DNA of 64,000 nt from an uncultured Gammaproteobacteria bacterium (GCA_964355175.1 CAYHBZ010000001.1:174335-238334); one strand, 5' to 3'; counted from the stretch's first letter, positions 1,648 to 45,932 are shown. Notes: generated by a model from the letters alone, not told the origin. Numbers and translations are program-made.

Positions 1648-3822
1648 CTATTCGTCAATTTTATCCACTTGTCCGGATTTAAGTATTTTTGGCTTATGTT
1701 CGGGTGCTGGTTTTGGTTCAGAAGAATTAATTTCCGGCATTGCATATACTCGTACCGGCTTTTCTACTACCTGAGACGCGGGAGGGGTATATGATTTTTT
1801 ATCTTCATCTAGTGATAGGGGTGGTGGTGGACTGACAGGGGCTTTTGGAACTACAGGTTGTGTTGGATTCACCGGCGGTTGTGTCTGGTGGCGAGGCTCT
1901 ATGGTCGATGACTTAGATTGTTGAGGTGATTGTAAGGCGCTCAGAGATATTCCTTTTTGTTGTGTATCCACTATCGCCACTGGTGCGCTTTGATTGGGGT
2001 TGCCAAAATTTTGTCCCCCTTTATTTCTTTTTCTCTTTCTTTTACCACTACCAGACTGACCTGATTGGCCTGGCTGACCGGCGGGACGCTGCTGCATCTG
2101 ACTACCAGATGATGGCTGATTATTTGCTACCGGACGCACTACAGCGGAAGTGTGATGCGTGGTGGGCACTACTCTTGGTGCTGGATTGGACGGAGCGGGC
2201 GCAGGAATTGCCGGAAGTACATTGATATTATTTTCAATCACCACAATATTTTGCATCGGTTCGGCTACTGGAGCAGGAGCGACCGAAGCTGGGGCGGGAG
2301 CTGACTGTGGTGTTGGTTTAGGCTCTGCTGGTTTTGGAGCAGGCGGTGGAGTGCTAGGCGGTGGTGTAGGTTTGGTAGCAGCTGGCGGCGGAGTTTTGGC
2401 CACTGGTTTTTCTACTGGTTTTTTATCTTTTGGAAATTCCGCAAACATTGAATCTTCATCATCTACTTCCAGCTGAGCGGCTTCATCGCCTGGAATAATC
2501 ACCATACCGCTCCAACGCGCAATTTTATCTTCGATCTTTTCTCTGTTTACAGCGTAGCGTTCACGCGACACACGCACCACTTTTTCCATACTGCCGGTGG
2601 CCTGCGCGATAGGAGCCATAGTGAGCGCGCTAAACGGACGACTGGCCACACCATCAATCATTAATTTAAGATAGATATGAAACTTTGGCAGATTGATAAG
2701 ATCTTCTTCGACAAAAGTAGGAATAAATTCTTTGGCCAAAATTTCGGCATCACTGGATCCTACACGAAAAGTTACGATAGTACCCACGTTACCAATTACA
2801 GCCGCTAATACTTCTTCTTCGAGCTGTTCCATATATTGGTGAGCCATCGTGAGGTCCAAGCGATATTTACGGGCTTCAGATAAAATATTAGCAAAAGATT
2901 CAGTCGCAAAATTTTGAAATTCATCTACATACAAAAAGAAATCTTTACGCTCAGTTTCAGGCGTATCTACGCGCTCCATGGCGGAGAGCTGAATTTTGGT
3001 GATAAGCATACCGCCAAGCAGACGCGAATTATCTTCACCAATTCTGCCTTTACTGAGGTTCATGATGAAAATCTTTTTCTCATCCATGATCTCGCGAATA
3101 TTAATACGAGATTTTACCTGCGCTACGATATTACGAATCACCGAAGCTGATAAAAATTGACCAATTTTATTTTGGATAGGAGCTACGGCTTCTTGTTTAT
3201 ATTTATCATTGTACGAAGCAAACTCTGTCTGCCAAAAAGCTTTTATTACCGGATCCTGAGTATTATTCACTACGCGGCGGCGATATTCTTCGTCGGCGAG
3301 CAATCTATTAATACCCAAAAGAGTGGTGCCGGGAAAATCCAAAAGCGCCAAAATAGTATTATTTAAAATGTATTCCATTCTTGAGCTCCAAACATCCGGC
3401 CAAATTTTCTTGAACACACCCATCAAACCAGAAGCTACTAAATGTTTTTGATCCGGACGAATGGTTTCCAAAATATTAAAGCCGATTGGATAATCCAAAT
3501 CGGACGGATTGAAATATACCACATCATTGATGCGGTTGGCTGGAATATAATTGAGAATTTTTTCAGCGGTGTCACCATGTGGATCTACATAGCCCAAGCC
3601 ATGGCCGGCATAGATATCGTTGAGCACCATGTTTTCCAGCAAAGTAGTTTTGCCCATACCGGTTTTACCCACTACATACATATGGCGACGGCGATCGTCG
3701 AGCTTGATACCAAATTTGCGATTTTGATTGCGATAGTTGGCCAAACCAAAAAAATTAACATCGGGATTACCCAGTGGATTATTGGCAGGATCTGTACTTG
3801 GATCTAAAATTAAATCGCTCAT
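1648..3822 (-). CDS. VirD4/TraD/TraG-family P-loop ATPase (type IV coupling-protein-like) with a long Pro/Ala/Ser/Gln-rich C-terminal tail
   Basis: Walker A YVVGKTGMGKTT and Walker B LYVDEFQNF, with overall TraD/VirD4-like layout. No N-terminal TM helices. The last ~300 aa are a low-complexity PAPAP/TPPP tract containing GKRKRKRNKG. The DNA at 1800-2500 is correspondingly GC-rich and repetitive. Confidence 0.6.
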   Translation of the reverse strand: MSDLILDPSTDPANNPLGNPDVNFFGLANYRNQNRKFGIKLDDRRRHMYVVGKTGMGKTTLLENMVLNDIYAGHGLGYVDPHGDTAEKILNYIPANRINDVVYFNPSDLDYPIGFNILETIRPDQKHLVASGLMGVFKKIWPDVWSSRMEYILNNTILALLDFPGTTLLGINRLLADEEYRRRVVNNTQDPVIKAFWQTEFASYNDKYKQEAVAPIQNKIGQFLSASVIRNIVAQVKSRINIREIMDEKKIFIMNLSKGRIGEDNSRLLGGMLITKIQLSAMERVDTPETERKDFFLYVDEFQNFATESFANILSEARKYRLDLTMAHQYMEQLEEEVLAAVIGNVGTIVTFRVGSSDAEILAKEFIPTFVEEDLINLPKFHIYLKLMIDGVASRPFSALTMAPIAQATGSMEKVVRVSRERYAVNREKIEDKIARWSGMVIIPGDEAAQLEVDDEDSMFAEFPKDKKPVEKPVAKTPPPAATKPTPPPSTPPPAPKPAEPKPTPQSAPAPASVAPAPVAEPMQNIVVIENNINVLPAIPAPAPSNPAPRVVPTTHHTSAVVRPVANNQPSSGSQMQQRPAGQPGQSGQSGSGKRKRKRNKGGQNFGNPNQSAPVAIVDTQQKGISLSALQSPQQSKSSTIEPRHQTQPPVNPTQPVVPKAPVSPPPPLSLDEDKKSYTPPASQVVEKPVRVYAMPEINSSEPKPAPEHKPKILKSGQVDKIDE

Positions 3823-10157: not shown

Positions 10158-10267
10158 AATTTTAAATTATTGGCCCATTTTTTAAAGTTCAGCGAAGATG
10201 AACTGCGGGCTTCTTCTTATATAAACAGGGTTAATTATAGCAAATACAAGCTGAAATGTCAATACTA

Positions 10268-10720
10268 GGCTGTTTAGATTGACAAAAAGCTAATTTCTAT
10301 ATACTATGAGTGCGCAACGCAGCCAAACTGCGCAGGAAAAAAACGATGTTTCTGACCTGTGATGAAACCAATCACTCCCTGGAAGAAACCTGGCCGCTCT
10401 GGGCCGGAACACGGTCGGATGTCCCTACCCATTCCGCTTTGAGCCACAATGTGATCCAGAAGATCCCTGAGGACCAGAGGCGTTCGACTCCTTGTCAGCC
10501 TAGCGTCGGCGATGATGGTGTAGACATCCACGAAGCGGAGAGTACGACCCATCGTGGTTTCTACCACATGACCGGGTTTAAGCTCGGACGCTTCGCGTTT
10601 TCCATTTCTGGCGAGACGGCCCGCAAGTACCTGCCTCGCCACTACAGCCGTTACCCGGCAGTTGCAAACTGACAGGAGGAATATTGGAGGGGTGTGCCGG
10701 CGGACCACACTAAACGTCCG
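10268..10720. ncRNA. GC-rich structured-RNA candidate (unassigned; tmRNA-like features at 10268-10501)
   Basis: A ~450-nt island of much higher GC than its surroundings. Overlapping ORFs on both strands (10304..10723 and 10310..10672) are typical GC-island artefacts. Many hairpins. 5' GGCUG-uuua-GAUUGAC (10268-10284) resembles the tmRNA 5' end. GGACCAGAGGCGUUCGACUCCUUGUCAGCC (10471-10500) resembles a tmRNA T-arm plus acceptor 3' strand. UAGGCUG at 10266 pairs perfectly with CAGCCUA at 10496. A possible tag frame (gct aat ttc tat ata cta tga) is followed by a stable hairpin. However, the tag is atypical and 10502-10720 is unexplained, so family and strand are uncertain. Confidence 0.35.
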
Positions 10721-10728
10721 CACATCTC

Positions 10729-10766
10729 AAAAACCACTTTCTTCCGAAAGTGGTTTTTGTTTTTTA
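10729..10766. terminator. Bidirectional rho-independent terminator (AAAACCACTTT-cttccg-AAAGTGGTTTTT)
   Basis: 11-bp stem flanked by an A-run and a T-run. It lies between the GC-rich RNA island and the stop of the minus-strand DUF192 gene. Confidence 0.7.
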
Positions 10767-43021: not shown

Positions 43022-43025
43022 AATT

Positions 43026-43883
43026 TTAACTTAAATATTCTTTTAAAGCCTCTTCCCAACTTCTTTGTTTTGGTAATTTAGTATTCAATAACTCCGAATA
43101 CATCGGACGCTTAGCGGGGCGAGGAAACTTTTCACCCGATACCGGAGTGGTATCAATATTAATATTTTTTATTTTGAAAATTTCTTTGGCCCATTCGTAC
43201 CAGCTACATACGCCGCTATTGCTACCGTGATATATTCCAAATGGTTTTTGATCAGCAATAATACTGCGGGTTAGTTTGGCCAAATCAGGTGCATAGGTAA
43301 TACACCCAACTTCTTCATCCACCAAATCCAAGTGTGTTTTTCCACCTTCAGTAGCGAGCCAAATCATAGTATCTACAAAACTTTTTTTAGCCCCAACACT
43401 AGCGGCTGGTTTGCCAAATAATTTGGACAAGCGAATGATATAAAACTTTCCCCCAATATTTAAAAGTTGATTCTCCCCTACGGCTTTAGTTTCTCCATAT
43501 TTATTTATCGGATCAAGTTTGTCATCTTCTTTATAGCCATCACGACTATCGCCTTTAAAAACATAATCCGAAGAATAATGAACAAAAGTAATATTATTTT
43601 CTTTACAAATTCTAGTCAAATTTCCTACGGCTTCACCATTAATATTTTTAGCCAGTTCAAAAATATTAGAATCTTCTTCAATCTTATCCACCATATTATA
43701 CGCCACAGCGTTAATCAAAATATCCGGCATGACATTTTTTATTTTTTCTCGTGTGGCAGAAAAATCCGTAATATCCAAATCTTCTTTATCCCATCCAACA
43801 ACTTCAAAATTTTGTGCGCTAAATTCTCTGACCAATTCCTGTCCCAACATTCCTTTTGCTCCCAATATTAAAACTTTTTGCAT
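43026..43883 (-). CDS. rmlD: dTDP-4-dehydrorhamnose reductase
   Basis: ILGAKGMLG Rossmann start, YGETK catalytic YxxxK, and RmlD-like C-terminus. Confidence 0.85.
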   Translation of the reverse strand: MQKVLILGAKGMLGQELVREFSAQNFEVVGWDKEDLDITDFSATREKIKNVMPDILINAVAYNMVDKIEEDSNIFELAKNINGEAVGNLTRICKENNITFVHYSSDYVFKGDSRDGYKEDDKLDPINKYGETKAVGENQLLNIGGKFYIIRLSKLFGKPAASVGAKKSFVDTMIWLATEGGKTHLDLVDEEVGCITYAPDLAKLTRSIIADQKPFGIYHGSNSGVCSWYEWAKEIFKIKNINIDTTPVSGEKFPRPAKRPMYSELLNTKLPKQRSWEEALKEYLS

Positions 43884-44027
43884 AGAATATAACTAGGCCT
43901 ATTAGATATTAATTTTCGCCGCGAGAACTGTTTGAAGTGGCGAGAACCAAAATTGCTGTCTGCAGTGAGAATAATTCGCCACAAGTTTTCGAGCAAGAAA
44001 ATTCATATCTATGAGGCCGTAAACTAC

Positions 44028-44432
44028 TTAATTAGCAGAAATTAATTTTTGATATTCGTCATAATCAGTAAGATAATCACTACGATCCGGAGTATAATTA
44101 GTAGACGACAAAGCAAGTAACACGCCCTCTGACGAAACATCCTTAAACCCGTGCCACACGTGATCGCCCACATACATGGCATCACCAGCGGCCATAGAGA
44201 TCTCCTCTTTTCCGTTTCCACGATCAATCACGGCTATCATCGTGCCGCGCTGACAGATGAAAAATTCTATTTCTTTGTAGTGACAGTGCTGACCGGTTGG
44301 CACAGTAAAATCGGTGACATAATAAATACGCTTCACTTCAAAATCAATAAAATCTTTTAATTCTACTGGAGTCAAAGCCACACCCGTGTTGGTAAAAGTT
44401 TTAAATTTAAATTGTTCAAATTTTAAATTCAT
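44028..44432 (-). CDS. WxcM/FdtA-like cupin, putative dTDP-4-keto-6-deoxyhexose 3,4-ketoisomerase
   Basis: KRIYYVTD...GQHCHYK...FFICQRG matches the RxYYxxD...RGxHAHK pattern of the FdtA/QdtA/WxcM-C family. Start chosen at MNLKFE (44432); the longer ORF to 44636 runs into the GC-rich island. Confidence 0.6.
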   Translation of the reverse strand: MNLKFEQFKFKTFTNTGVALTPVELKDFIDFEVKRIYYVTDFTVPTGQHCHYKEIEFFICQRGTMIAVIDRGNGKEEISMAAGDAMYVGDHVWHGFKDVSSEGVLLALSSTNYTPDRSDYLTDYDEYQKLISAN

Positions 44433-44439
44433 ATAATAA

Positions 44440-44900
44440 AATATTTTTTTATAACGGAGGGGATTGGGCGTTTTGAACAGACGCCCAAACTGTATATCGC
44501 CGCTGTGATCAGCCGGCCCGACCGCGATTCTTTGCGGCAGCCTGGCGATCTTTTTTTCTCTGCTGGGCGGTACGGCGATCTTGTTGTCCGTCGTCATGAT
44601 TTGGCAATCTGAGATGGACAACATTGTCGTCTGCATCTTCTGCTGGTTTGTGCGCTGTATCTGAGGGTTTCACCTCTACAAAATGGGGGCTCAAGGAATA
44701 GAGCCCGCCATTGCTGAGACACAGCTCGCACTCTCCAGCAAAATCTACATTCCTACCATCGCCGTTTTCATCCTGAATCACCAGAGAACACCCACACACG
44801 ATCCGCATGCACACCTCGCAGAATTAAGGTCTACTAGCCATTTACTGTGAACTTCCACCCTCCTTTGAAAAAACCAACGACCCGGTCATTAATTTTTTCA
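44440..44900. other. GC-rich compositional island between rmlB and the cupin gene; contains a 101-aa Cys-containing minus-strand ORF (44509..44814) or a structured RNA
   Basis: GC content is clearly above the flanking genes. It holds hairpins (TTGGGCG-ttttgaacaga-CGCCCAA; ATCGCCG...CGGCGAT). The only ORF is MCMRIVCGCSLV...CELC...RRTAQQRKKDRQAAAKNRGRAG, with GC-rich codons unlike the host. Its nature is unresolved. Confidence 0.4.
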
Positions 44901-44918
44901 AAAGAGGATCAATTTTTA

Positions 44919-45932
44919 TTATTTAATATGATTATTAATATCATCTTTCTTGGCCCAAATTTTTTCCACCCAAGCGGTATTGTTCAAATACCAATCCACT
45001 GTTTCTTTTAGACCTTGCTCAAACTTGTCGGCAGAATATACCGGCTTCCAACCAAGATCAGTAATTTTGGTAGCATCGATGGCATAGCGACGATCATGGC
45101 CCGGACGATCCTGCACATATTCAATACTGCTTTCATCTTTGCCCATCATTTTGAGCAACATGTGAGTAATTTCCATATTACTGCGTTCATTATCGACACC
45201 AATATTATACACTCCCCCATTTTCACCTTTTTCCAAAAGTAAATCCAAGGCACGAGCATGGTCTTCCACATGAATCCAATCACGCACATACAATCCATCA
45301 CCATACATCGGCACTTTTTCACCTTTCATGAGTTTCATCACAAAAAATGGAATCAATTTTTCTGGGAATTGATAAGCACCGTAATTATTAGAACAATGAG
45401 TCACCACTACCGGCACTTTGTGTGTGACAAAATAAGCGTGACACATTAGATCACCACCGGCTTTGGCCGCGGCATATGGCATGTTTGGGTTTATTGGAGT
45501 ACTTTCAGAAAATTTATCCGGGCTGTCCAATCGCAGAGCGCCATACACTTCATCCGTAGAAACATTTACCATTTTCTGTAAATTATTAGCGCGCACCGCA
45601 TCCAGCAACATCTGCACGCCCAAAGTATTGGTCAACACAAAATCACGCAAACCGCCATGGATAGATTTGTCGACATGAGTTTCAGCAGCAAAATTTATCA
45701 AATGAGTGATCCCGAATTTTTTAATAGTTTCATTTATTTTTTCCAAATCAATAATATCCCCTTGCACAAAATGATATCTTGGATTATTTTCCAAATCACG
45801 CAAATTATCTAAATTGCCGGCGTAAGTGAGTTTATCAAAATTCACCACTTCCGCTTCCGGATGCGCTTTTAAATAATAATGGATAAAATTTGAACCAATA
45901 AATCCGGCTCCTCCACAGACTAGTAATTTCAT
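44919..45932 (-). CDS. rmlB: dTDP-glucose 4,6-dehydratase
   Basis: CGGAGFIGSNF, catalytic STDEVYG and YAAAK (YxxxK), RmlB-length extended SDR. Confidence 0.9.
   Translation of the reverse strand: MKLLVCGGAGFIGSNFIHYYLKAHPEAEVVNFDKLTYAGNLDNLRDLENNPRYHFVQGDIIDLEKINETIKKFGITHLINFAAETHVDKSIHGGLRDFVLTNTLGVQMLLDAVRANNLQKMVNVSTDEVYGALRLDSPDKFSESTPINPNMPYAAAKAGGDLMCHAYFVTHKVPVVVTHCSNNYGAYQFPEKLIPFFVMKLMKGEKVPMYGDGLYVRDWIHVEDHARALDLLLEKGENGGVYNIGVDNERSNMEITHMLLKMMGKDESSIEYVQDRPGHDRRYAIDATKITDLGWKPVYSADKFEQGLKETVDWYLNNTAWVEKIWAKKDDINNHIK

Follow-up and report, generated by a model that had tools for sequence, protein, structure and literature searches.

The 486-nt spacer that separates rmlB from the gene for an FdtA/WxcM-like cupin in the window (the whole stretch of DNA analysed here, 64,000 nt) holds a compact gene cassette, probably of foreign origin and laterally exchanged as a phage- or homing-type module. 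The cassette is a discrete unit, which is present or absent at one junction and whose content is exchangeable. Between two boundary hairpins it carries a real gene, a member of a small conserved protein family (here called family A) whose N-terminal domain is under purifying selection. The product is an undescribed four-cysteine protein that probably binds zinc.

Position and composition of the spacer

On the minus strand, the genes are ordered ftsW, rmlB, the 486-nt spacer, the cupin gene, a second spacer of 144 nt, rmlD, and pgi (coordinates are given in Table 1). The first-pass annotation, made from the sequence alone, had described the 486-nt spacer as a GC-rich island with strong hairpins that interrupts an otherwise tightly packed dTDP-sugar operon. 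The island and its composition were confirmed: the G+C content is 47.5% over the spacer and 52.3% over its core (44456-44860) versus 38.8% for the window, which puts the core about three standard deviations above the mean of 400-nt windows (sd 4.5%), at the 99.5th percentile. The hairpins are present as well, in the form of a 24-bp inverted repeat next to rmlB and of fold z-scores, against shuffled sequence, of -8.35 on the minus and -6.73 on the plus strand. The tight packing is contradicted by the second spacer (43884-44027), which lies between the cupin gene and rmlD.

The cupin of the window clusters with proteins that their sources name Candidatus Magasanikbacteria, and the window is, as judged from its sequence, that of an ultra-small (CPR) bacterium of Magasanikbacteria type. 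No tRNA or tmRNA gene was predicted by ARAGORN, no second copy of the island was found within the window, and a blastn search of the island against phage and plasmid records returned no match.

Table 1. Features of the rmlB/cupin region, with positions counted from the first letter of the window
Feature	Position	Strand	Basis
rmlB, dTDP-glucose 4,6-dehydratase family	44919..45932	-	Pfam match
Whole cassette (spacer, rmlB stop to cupin start, 486 nt)	44433..44918	-	
5' boundary hairpin, 24-nt arms	44859..44907	-	Inverted repeat and fold
Shine-Dalgarno-like GAGGTG	44812..44817	-	Read from sequence
Family-A gene, 99 codons plus stop (ATG 44808, TGA 44511-44509)	44509..44808	-	phmmer, profile, dN/dS, AlphaFold2
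CxC-X19-CxxC domain, codons 1-48	44808-44665	-	
3' boundary stem-loop, TTGGGCG-TCTGTTCAAAA-CGCCCAA	44464..44488	-	
AT-rich tract GTTATAAAAAAATATTTTATTAT, immediately before the cupin ATG	44433..44455	-	Read from sequence
FdtA/WxcM-like cupin, 134 aa, true start ATG 44432	44028..44432	-	Pfam FdtA, E = 1.4e-21
rmlD	43026-43883	-	

Boundary elements and the junction in relatives

The rmlB side of the cassette is marked by a long hairpin whose 3' arm contains a U6 tract (44873-44868) followed by CAAAGGAGGG. The hairpin looks like a terminator or attenuator for rmlB; the U6 tract falls inside the longer stem, and a simple terminator scan did not list the hairpin. Its shape is bidirectional (A-tract, stem, T-tract). 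Across seven loci, the hairpin persists while its sequence varies, and 11 of the 24 pairs show compensatory changes.

At the other end, the 3' stem-loop lies between ACAGTT on its upstream side and a C-rich tract (44463-44456) on its downstream side. The 21-nt core of this stem-loop, GGGCGTCTGTTCAAAACGCCC, is identical in L012, L013, L014, L016, and L024, an identity that is partly one of ascertainment because the 21-mer was the search probe. The same 21-mer is identical in L018, a locus reached independently through a protein match, and it occurs once per genome, at the rmlB/cupin junction only. The AT-rich tract that leads into the cupin gene has counterparts at the equivalent position in four relatives (L012, L013, L018, and L024) and may be a promoter or restart region for the cupin gene and rmlD. 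Within the cassette, it is the boundary hairpins alone that behave as RNA- or DNA-level elements. A search of IMG/VR with the hairpin as probe gave no match.

Two other assignments were considered and rejected. A MITE or repeated palindromic element does not agree with a single copy and with a junction that has no target-site duplication. A promoter for the small gene itself (a weak TTCACA-17-CTTAAT between the 5' hairpin and the Shine-Dalgarno motif) was discarded as well, L012, L016, and L018 having only about 20 nt in that interval.

The orthologous rmlB/cupin junctions, whose comparison the first-pass annotation had proposed, are empty in one group of relatives and filled in another. The empty site is seen in L005-L011, where the rmlB stop codon is followed by a single T and the adjacent ATG of the cupin gene (...ATTAAGTAG-T-ATGCAATTAAA...); the rmlB and cupin proteins of these loci are 87% and 85% identical, respectively, to those of the window. 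The same loci have two further genes that are absent from the window, one of the inositol-monophosphatase family between the cupin gene and rmlD, and another, a NUDIX gene, that follows rmlD.

The filled site, with other content, is present in at least seven other Magasanikbacteria assemblies (L003, L012, L013, L014, L016, L018, and L024). A scan for the 21-nt core over one genome per species retrieved three Magasanikbacteria MAGs (L012, L013, and L016), the contig L014, which is binned as Gammaproteobacteria and encodes an rmlB protein 90.5% identical to that of the window, and the chance match L015; a scan of metagenomes added L023/L024. The match in L015/L025 (an Oscillospiraceae MAG) was set aside, as it lies by chance inside GC-rich coding sequence.

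The spacers of the filled relatives span roughly 290-830 nt at the same junction and, by blastn, resemble that of the window at the 3' end only. Each of them follows a three-part plan, namely a hairpin after rmlB, one to three short genes, and the 3' stem-loop. The 3' arm of the first hairpin has a T6 run and then CAGAGGG or CAAAGGAGGG; the 3' end consists of (A)CAGTT, (T)GGGCG-TCTGTTCAAAA-CGCCC, a C-rich run, and an AT-rich tract that extends to the start of the cupin gene.

The genes between the hairpins differ from locus to locus. A single family-A gene makes up the content of six cassettes (window, L003, L013, L014, L018, and L024), and, with no partner gene present, nothing supports the antitoxin-like function that had been suggested for the small ORF. 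In L012, family A comes after two unrelated zinc-ribbon genes of the CxxC...CxxC type (58 and 57 aa), and L016 has no family-A gene and instead a 61-aa zinc-ribbon gene like the first of L012. A GGAGG-type motif stands ahead of every family-A gene and every partner zinc-ribbon gene. The eight cassettes on chromosomes carry no gene for a nuclease, integrase, or transposase, and so reveal no mechanism of mobility.

The small gene and its protein family

The first-pass annotation had reported a 101-aa ORF on the minus strand of the spacer. This ORF exists (44509-44814), but its start has to be moved: GTG 44814 falls inside the Shine-Dalgarno-like GAGGTG, and because the gene callers and all homologues agree, the likely start is ATG 44808, which yields a protein of 99 aa (MRIVCGC...). 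The GAGGTG motif sits 3 nt before this ATG, or 5 nt if the GAGG core alone is counted. The CxC-X19-CxxC domain at the N-terminus is followed, in codons 49-99, by an acidic variable linker and then a basic C-terminal helix (RKKDRQAAAKNRGRAG).

A word-indexed search across 5.8 billion proteins retrieved, apart from the ORF itself, a single protein (P0002, 82% identical), which is carried on a contig of 900 bp, L003. With phmmer, a search that covered 1.84 billion representatives exhaustively (E <= 1e-3) gave 17 matches, among them one artefact, P0017, a 3000-aa tandem-repeat protein that was rejected as a spurious additive match. The remaining matches are 65-151 aa in length and 40-55% identical to the window protein over residues 3-55, with E-values down to 4.8e-11 for members other than the close relative. 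A search with the family-A profile brought in four further members (E down to 1e-21), and since it added only four, the family appears to be rare; it has about 25 members.

The alignment of family A has seven invariant residues (C5, C7, D17, C27, C30, G35, and S40), all of which are present in the window protein, and three that are near-invariant (S8, G18, and Y37). Its consensus reads MSRIVCGCSxVVERIxDGK....AGECEICxxNGGxYxKSPHWKE. None of the Pfam, PHROG, or NCBIfam models covers the domain, and a literature search found no description of the family.

The two parts of the protein evolve in very different ways. Between the window and L003, the N-terminal domain (48 codons) has a dN/dS of 0.26, versus 2.3 for the tail (15 non-synonymous and 2 synonymous changes). 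Over the whole ORF, the substitutions are spread evenly over the codon positions (10/10/9), a flat profile that arises because a constrained N-terminal domain is joined to a very fast-evolving tail. In rmlB, by comparison, 26 of the 31 substitutions between the same two loci are at third codon positions (dN/dS 0.02). The tail of the chromosomal subfamily nonetheless has recognizable elements, a (V/L)(P/L)FP-like motif of hydrophobic character and a basic (D)RKAxRxAxAA stretch, which the window shares with L012, L024, and P0024; the basic stretch is a helix in the AlphaFold2 prediction.

The AlphaFold2 model of the N-terminal domain alone (21 sequences) has a pLDDT of 86 and consists of three short strands and a helical turn that bring the two cysteine pairs together; the full-length model (pLDDT 57) is unusable. 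In a Zn(Cys)4 ribbon or knuckle, two cysteine pairs on beta-hairpin knuckles coordinate one zinc ion. Fold searches with the N-domain model gave no significant match, the best hits of Foldseek against the PDB being chains B4 and R4 of the Thermus ribosome (E > 1, non-significant). The label B4 is annotated as 50S protein L31 in a profile search of PDB sequences, of which the ten best matches are all bL31, with marginal E-values of 0.03-0.2 and the four cysteines in register; hmmsearch aligns RIICGCGNVIETYS-TKPEIYVEVCSKC with rivCgCSaVveridDGkdeelageCeiC. With hhalign, the probability is 68% against three reference sequences that we take to be bL31, and whose Thermus segment matches the PDB output; this alignment ends at the second cysteine pair.

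Type A bL31 (PF01197) and family A have CxC...CxxC with the four cysteines in register, and both join a zinc domain to a flexible linker and a basic C-terminus. The family-A gene differs in lying outside a ribosomal-protein context. We take bL31 only as a lead, because the Pfam L31 model matched neither the window protein (at E <= 1) nor any of 17 members (at E <= 0.1), and because the HPF(Y/F)TG motif and the C-terminal GRVxRF domain of bL31 are absent from the window protein. The weak likeness, the only one found to a known protein, suggests a shared type of zinc site rather than membership in the family.

Origin of the cassette

Several properties set the cassette apart from its host. The small gene has a G+C content of 52.7% versus 38.8% for the window, and the cassettes of L024, L014, and L012 are at 45-51% in hosts at 36-40%. 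Only 2 of the 58 long ORFs of the window (host genes) have a motif like the Shine-Dalgarno sequence that precedes the small gene. Many Parcubacteria are reported to lack the anti-Shine-Dalgarno motif (PMC9297842), which is consistent with the few Shine-Dalgarno-like motifs in the window.

The alleles of the cassette do not follow the relationships of the hosts. The window and L013 are close relatives by their RmlB proteins (98% identical) and FtsW (89%), whereas the N-terminal domains of their family-A proteins are 51% identical and belong to different subtypes (CGC versus CPC). The domain of the window is 61-66% identical to those of P0018, P0034, and P0019, which come from other contexts, and that of L013 is closer to those of distant hosts. 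Compared with L003, dS is 0.13 for the cassette gene and 0.69 for the adjacent rmlB, and the 5' end of the cupin gene diverges by 2.4% versus 9.6% for rmlB; the low dS of the cassette and the similar cupin 5' end fit a recent recombination tract.

Family A is also found away from the rml genes. P0036 is encoded on L019, a 40-kb contig of co-directional ORFans that appears to be phage-like from weak PHROG matches, at E-values of about 1e-5 to 1e-6, with a tail protein and with peptidases. Here, the family-A gene is the middle one of three adjacent small cysteine-rich genes, a module with 47% G+C in a contig that otherwise has 40%. Shine-Dalgarno-type motifs were flagged for 5 of 24 genes of the contig and cluster on the three cysteine-rich ones, the remaining 2 being more than 14 nt upstream of the ATG. 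Like the chromosomal cassettes, the module is preceded by a long hairpin, a T-run, and a GGGCAA...GCTCTTT leader; it ends in GCCTGT-CTCTTTCAAAA-ACAGGC, a similar loop on a different complementary stem. This end hairpin is suggestive of kinship with the 3' stem-loop of the window, on the strength of a single comparison.

A second context involves HNH nucleases. In L017, the family-A gene (P0019) is flanked by further small zinc-ribbon genes. On its upstream side it overlaps a 97-aa gene that shows homology to P0030 (E = 6e-15), in the C-terminal part of the latter. P0030 is itself a fusion protein, in which a family-A domain is joined to an HNH nuclease domain (21.4 bits, equal to the Pfam gathering threshold). 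It is the only one of 17 members with an HNH match, and the window protein has no HNH motif. In L022, family A is paired with a zinc-ribbon gene. Searches of IMG/VR with an L019 neighbour protein and with the back-translated GRYDRSPHW motif gave no match.

The first-pass annotation had offered two readings of the island, and that of a horizontally inserted small gene (for a zinc-binding peptide or the remnant of a selfish element) is essentially right. It is supported by the four-cysteine family, the contrast in G+C and Shine-Dalgarno motifs, the empty site in a related lineage, an allele unlike that of the closest host relative, and family members in phage-like and HNH-associated contexts.

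Phage morons and other small accessory modules resemble the cassette in being discrete insertions between conserved and otherwise abutting genes, with contrasting G+C and translation signals, a terminator-like hairpin at the boundary, proteins of <100 aa, and, in the present case, relatives in a phage-like contig. Unlike morons, the cassette lies in a chromosomal operon rather than a prophage, a promoter of its own was not identified, and different species use one and the same chromosomal junction for content that can be exchanged. Homing endonuclease genes of the freestanding kind (intronless homing, e.g., T4 seg/mob and HNH) are likewise intergenic, with filled and empty alleles and precise junctions; two contexts link family A physically to an HNH domain, and the flanks of the cassette look co-converted, given the difference between the cupin 5' end and rmlB noted earlier. 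The chromosomal cassettes differ in that all eight are without a nuclease gene. Integron cassettes, finally, share the order of short ORF(s) and conserved imperfect hairpin at one fixed position. An attC site measures about 57-141 nt, in contrast to the 25-nt 3' stem-loop found here, which occurs at a single site and without an array, and neither an integron integrase nor attI was seen in the DNA examined around the site, which included the Pfam-labelled genes of the neighbouring loci.

If the cassette is a laterally exchanged module of foreign origin, the long hairpin with its internal U6 tract would end or attenuate the rmlB transcript, and the 99-codon gene, led by its Shine-Dalgarno motif, would be expressed by read-through from rmlB. 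The product would combine an N-terminal domain of about 45 residues of the Zn(Cys)4 type, a fast-evolving linker, and a basic C-terminal helix. From the architecture of the protein alone, we propose that it may be a zinc-stabilised adaptor whose basic tail binds nucleic acid or a host machine. Downstream, the 3' stem-loop and C-rich tract, followed by the AT-rich stretch ahead of the cupin gene, would close the module, the stem-loop acting at the RNA level, whether as the end of an mRNA, as a processing site, or as a site for protein binding. Lateral spread would take place via phage or HNH-type homing and/or by recombination through the rmlB and cupin flanks. The HNH enzyme for homing could act in trans, and the module would now be a nuclease-less passenger at an rmlB/cupin hotspot.

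The most serious competitor is a long-resident gene of the Magasanikbacteria, vertically inherited, that serves the rml/FdtA sugar pathway as its locus-specific regulator or accessory factor, evolves very fast, and was lost cleanly once. We consider it unlikely, but it has several points in its favour. All eight chromosomal occurrences are at the identical junction with the same boundary elements, the chromosomal copies are all without a mobility gene, and the unrooted host trees permit a single gain. These trees are midpoint-rooted and contain three host clades, and without an outgroup they cannot separate one ancient gain with vertical descent from repeated gain and loss. A resident gene is, however, hard to reconcile with CGC and CPC subtypes in hosts whose rmlB proteins are 98% identical, or with a content that varies between a cassette without family A (L016) and one of three genes (L012). 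The G+C content and Shine-Dalgarno motifs unlike those of the host, a cassette dS far below that of rmlB, and the occurrence of the same genes in unrelated phage-like and HNH contexts away from the rml genes also count against it.

A degenerate freestanding homing endonuclease has a slim chance of being correct. Under that explanation, the Cys4 domain would be the DNA-binding module of an HNH enzyme whose target was formerly the rmlB/cupin junction, the nuclease would have been lost, and what is left would be decaying. The HNH fusion in P0030, the adjacent HNH gene in L017, the position between two conserved genes with presence/absence polymorphism, and a tail whose rate of evolution between the window and L003 is neutral or higher are what one would expect of such an element. 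Against this, the link to a nuclease is confined to two recovered members (P0030, fused, and P0019, adjacent), the nuclease-less members keep the invariant residues and intact reading frames, and the dN/dS of the N-terminal domain (0.26) is not that of a decaying remnant. A Pfam search of every frame of the spacer detected no remnant of an HNH domain.

The other reading of the first-pass annotation, which took the whole island for a structured ncRNA (a regulatory leader or a novel large ncRNA) with an incidental ORF, was the one that we favoured at first, in view of the flat 10/10/9 profile, the strong fold z-scores, and a word-indexed search that returned only P0002. We dropped it because the related junctions and the phmmer search revealed a protein family, with a dN/dS of 0.26 for its N-terminal domain, and now regard it as highly improbable. 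It would account for the fold z-scores, for a GC-rich island in an AT-rich genome, for the covariation of the 5' hairpin and the conservation of the 3' stem-loop, and for the low synonymous divergence. It would not account for nucleotide similarity that is limited to the boundaries, for the conservation between the hairpins of a protein motif (rather than of nucleotides) across loci and unrelated contexts, or for Shine-Dalgarno motifs correctly spaced ahead of each ORF. Rfam gave no match at the gathering score anywhere in the window and, at E <= 1 over the island, nothing except spurious matches of miRNA hairpins to the 5' hairpin.

That the GC-rich stretch is an N-terminal extension of the cupin, which the open frame of 202 aa (44028-44636) would allow, is refuted: the FdtA profile starts at residue 76 of this ORF, the orthologous cupins, of 133-139 aa, begin at the counterpart of ATG 44432, which in the empty sites comes right after rmlB, and the extension would cross the 3' stem-loop and overlap the conserved small gene in another frame.

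The preferred reading, of a laterally exchanged cassette, can be carried further, to a proposal that we offer as speculation with a small chance of being right in all its parts. The cassette would be a hairpin-bounded, nuclease-less mini-cassette that is exchanged among CPR bacteria and phages at one junction and mobilised in trans (e.g., by a linked HNH protein), with the 3' stem-loop as its recognition element, and the bL31-like zinc proteins that it encodes would act on the machinery for translation or transcription in hosts whose initiation is otherwise not led by Shine-Dalgarno sequences.

What is new here is a small cysteine-rich family and an unusual cassette arrangement; phage-type accessory genes and intergenic selfish insertions are known kinds. 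The genomes of CPR bacteria (Patescibacteria) are tiny and contain many unannotated small genes, and to our knowledge very little is known of CPR mobile DNA or phages. The locus is a clean, comparable case, in which alleles are filled or empty, the content is exchangeable, and the boundary hairpins are conserved, and it shows small phage-type genes entering and turning over inside an essential-looking surface-sugar operon. It also poses a puzzle, that of canonical Shine-Dalgarno motifs within a genome that does without them in its own genes, and family A offers a testable link to HNH nucleases. Should neither the mobility nor the ribosome-related reading be true, the small gene would stand as a well-documented orphan accessory gene; if either is, the locus would provide a route into host-phage conflict in unculturable organisms.

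Junctions of the sugar locus

In relatives L005 and L009, which lack an insert between rmlB and the FdtA-like cupin gene, a NUDIX gene (168 aa) lies between rmlD and pgi, whereas the corresponding gap in the window is 4 nt, so that three junctions of the sugar locus have been remodelled. Cupin and rmlD are separated in the window by a 144-nt spacer bounded by an inverted repeat, within which lies the inner pair GTGGCGA/TCGCCAC, and the predicted fold of the spacer is a single long hairpin (-40 to -48 kcal/mol). Seven relatives with an empty rmlB/cupin junction (L005-L011) carry at this position an inositol-monophosphatase-family gene of 256 aa, and the two genes abut in the Magasanikbacteria MAGs L012, L013, and L016. 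The assembly breaks inside the spacer in two independent assemblies (L001 and L002), and the window holds no further copy of it.

The 2.3-kb contig L014 (CAZXEV010000097.1) is binned as "uncultured Gammaproteobacteria". Since it carries a Magasanikbacteria-type rmlB, the protein of which is 90.5% identical to that of the window, as well as the GC-rich cassette found at the window's rmlB/cupin junction, it is probably mis-binned.

Positions of features in the window and in the compared contigs
Feature	Sequence	Positions	Strand
Third GC-rich stretch	window	about 1800-2400	
724-aa ORF	window	1648-3822	
L21-side island	window	10158-10766	
Consensus promoter, TTGACA-17-TATACT	window	10278-10306	plus
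Orphan ORF P0016, 108 aa	window	10346-10672	plus
Canonical terminator	window	about 10730-10765	plus
rmlD/pgi gap	window	43022-43025	
Cupin/rmlD spacer	window	43884-44027	
22-nt inverted repeat bounding the spacer	window	43896-43917 / 43997-44018	
NUDIX gene	L005/L009	5058-5564	
HNH-like domain with the overlapping family A gene	L017	828-1357	
Small-gene module	L019	9715-10444	

Further GC-rich stretches

A second GC-rich island, which separates the L21 gene from the next gene on the minus strand, reaches 56% G+C over 10311-10729 and holds a promoter, an orphan ORF (P0016), and a terminator. Compared with locus L026, where the synteny is kept, substitutions in the ORF number 17/16/38 by codon position, and this third-position excess establishes that it is coding. 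P0016 has only two homologues and no Pfam match; hardly any variation is seen in its roughly 90-nt 3' UTR, and a compensatory change is present in the terminator stem. A 400-nt scan detected a third GC-rich stretch, which falls within the 724-aa ORF.

Neighbours and Shine-Dalgarno-type motifs of family A genes

Family A, the small CxC-X19-CxxC proteins encoded by the cassette, is linked to a small HNH-like domain (HH[LI]IPQSR...FH..H..FGN) both by fusion, at the C-terminus of the family A domain in protein P0030, and by adjacency, the HNH-like coding sequence on contig L017 lying immediately upstream of the family A gene and overlapping it.

The 40-kb phage-like contig L019, like L020 and L021, carries a run of three small genes rich in Cys (58, 61, and 67 aa), the middle one being family A. 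A long terminator-like hairpin lies on one side of this GC-richer module and a stem-loop on the other; the loop of the latter resembles that of the conserved hairpin at the 3' end of the window's cassette. All three genes possess Shine-Dalgarno (SD)-type motifs; elsewhere on L019 (24 genes in all) only two genes were flagged, with the motif >14 nt from the ATG.

Among the host genes (all long ORFs of the window), which have AT-rich upstream regions, an SD motif precedes just 2 of 58, a near-absence consistent with the loss of the anti-SD motif reported in many Parcubacteria (PMC9297842). In contrast, the cassette gene carries a GGAGG-type motif, as does every one of its relatives.
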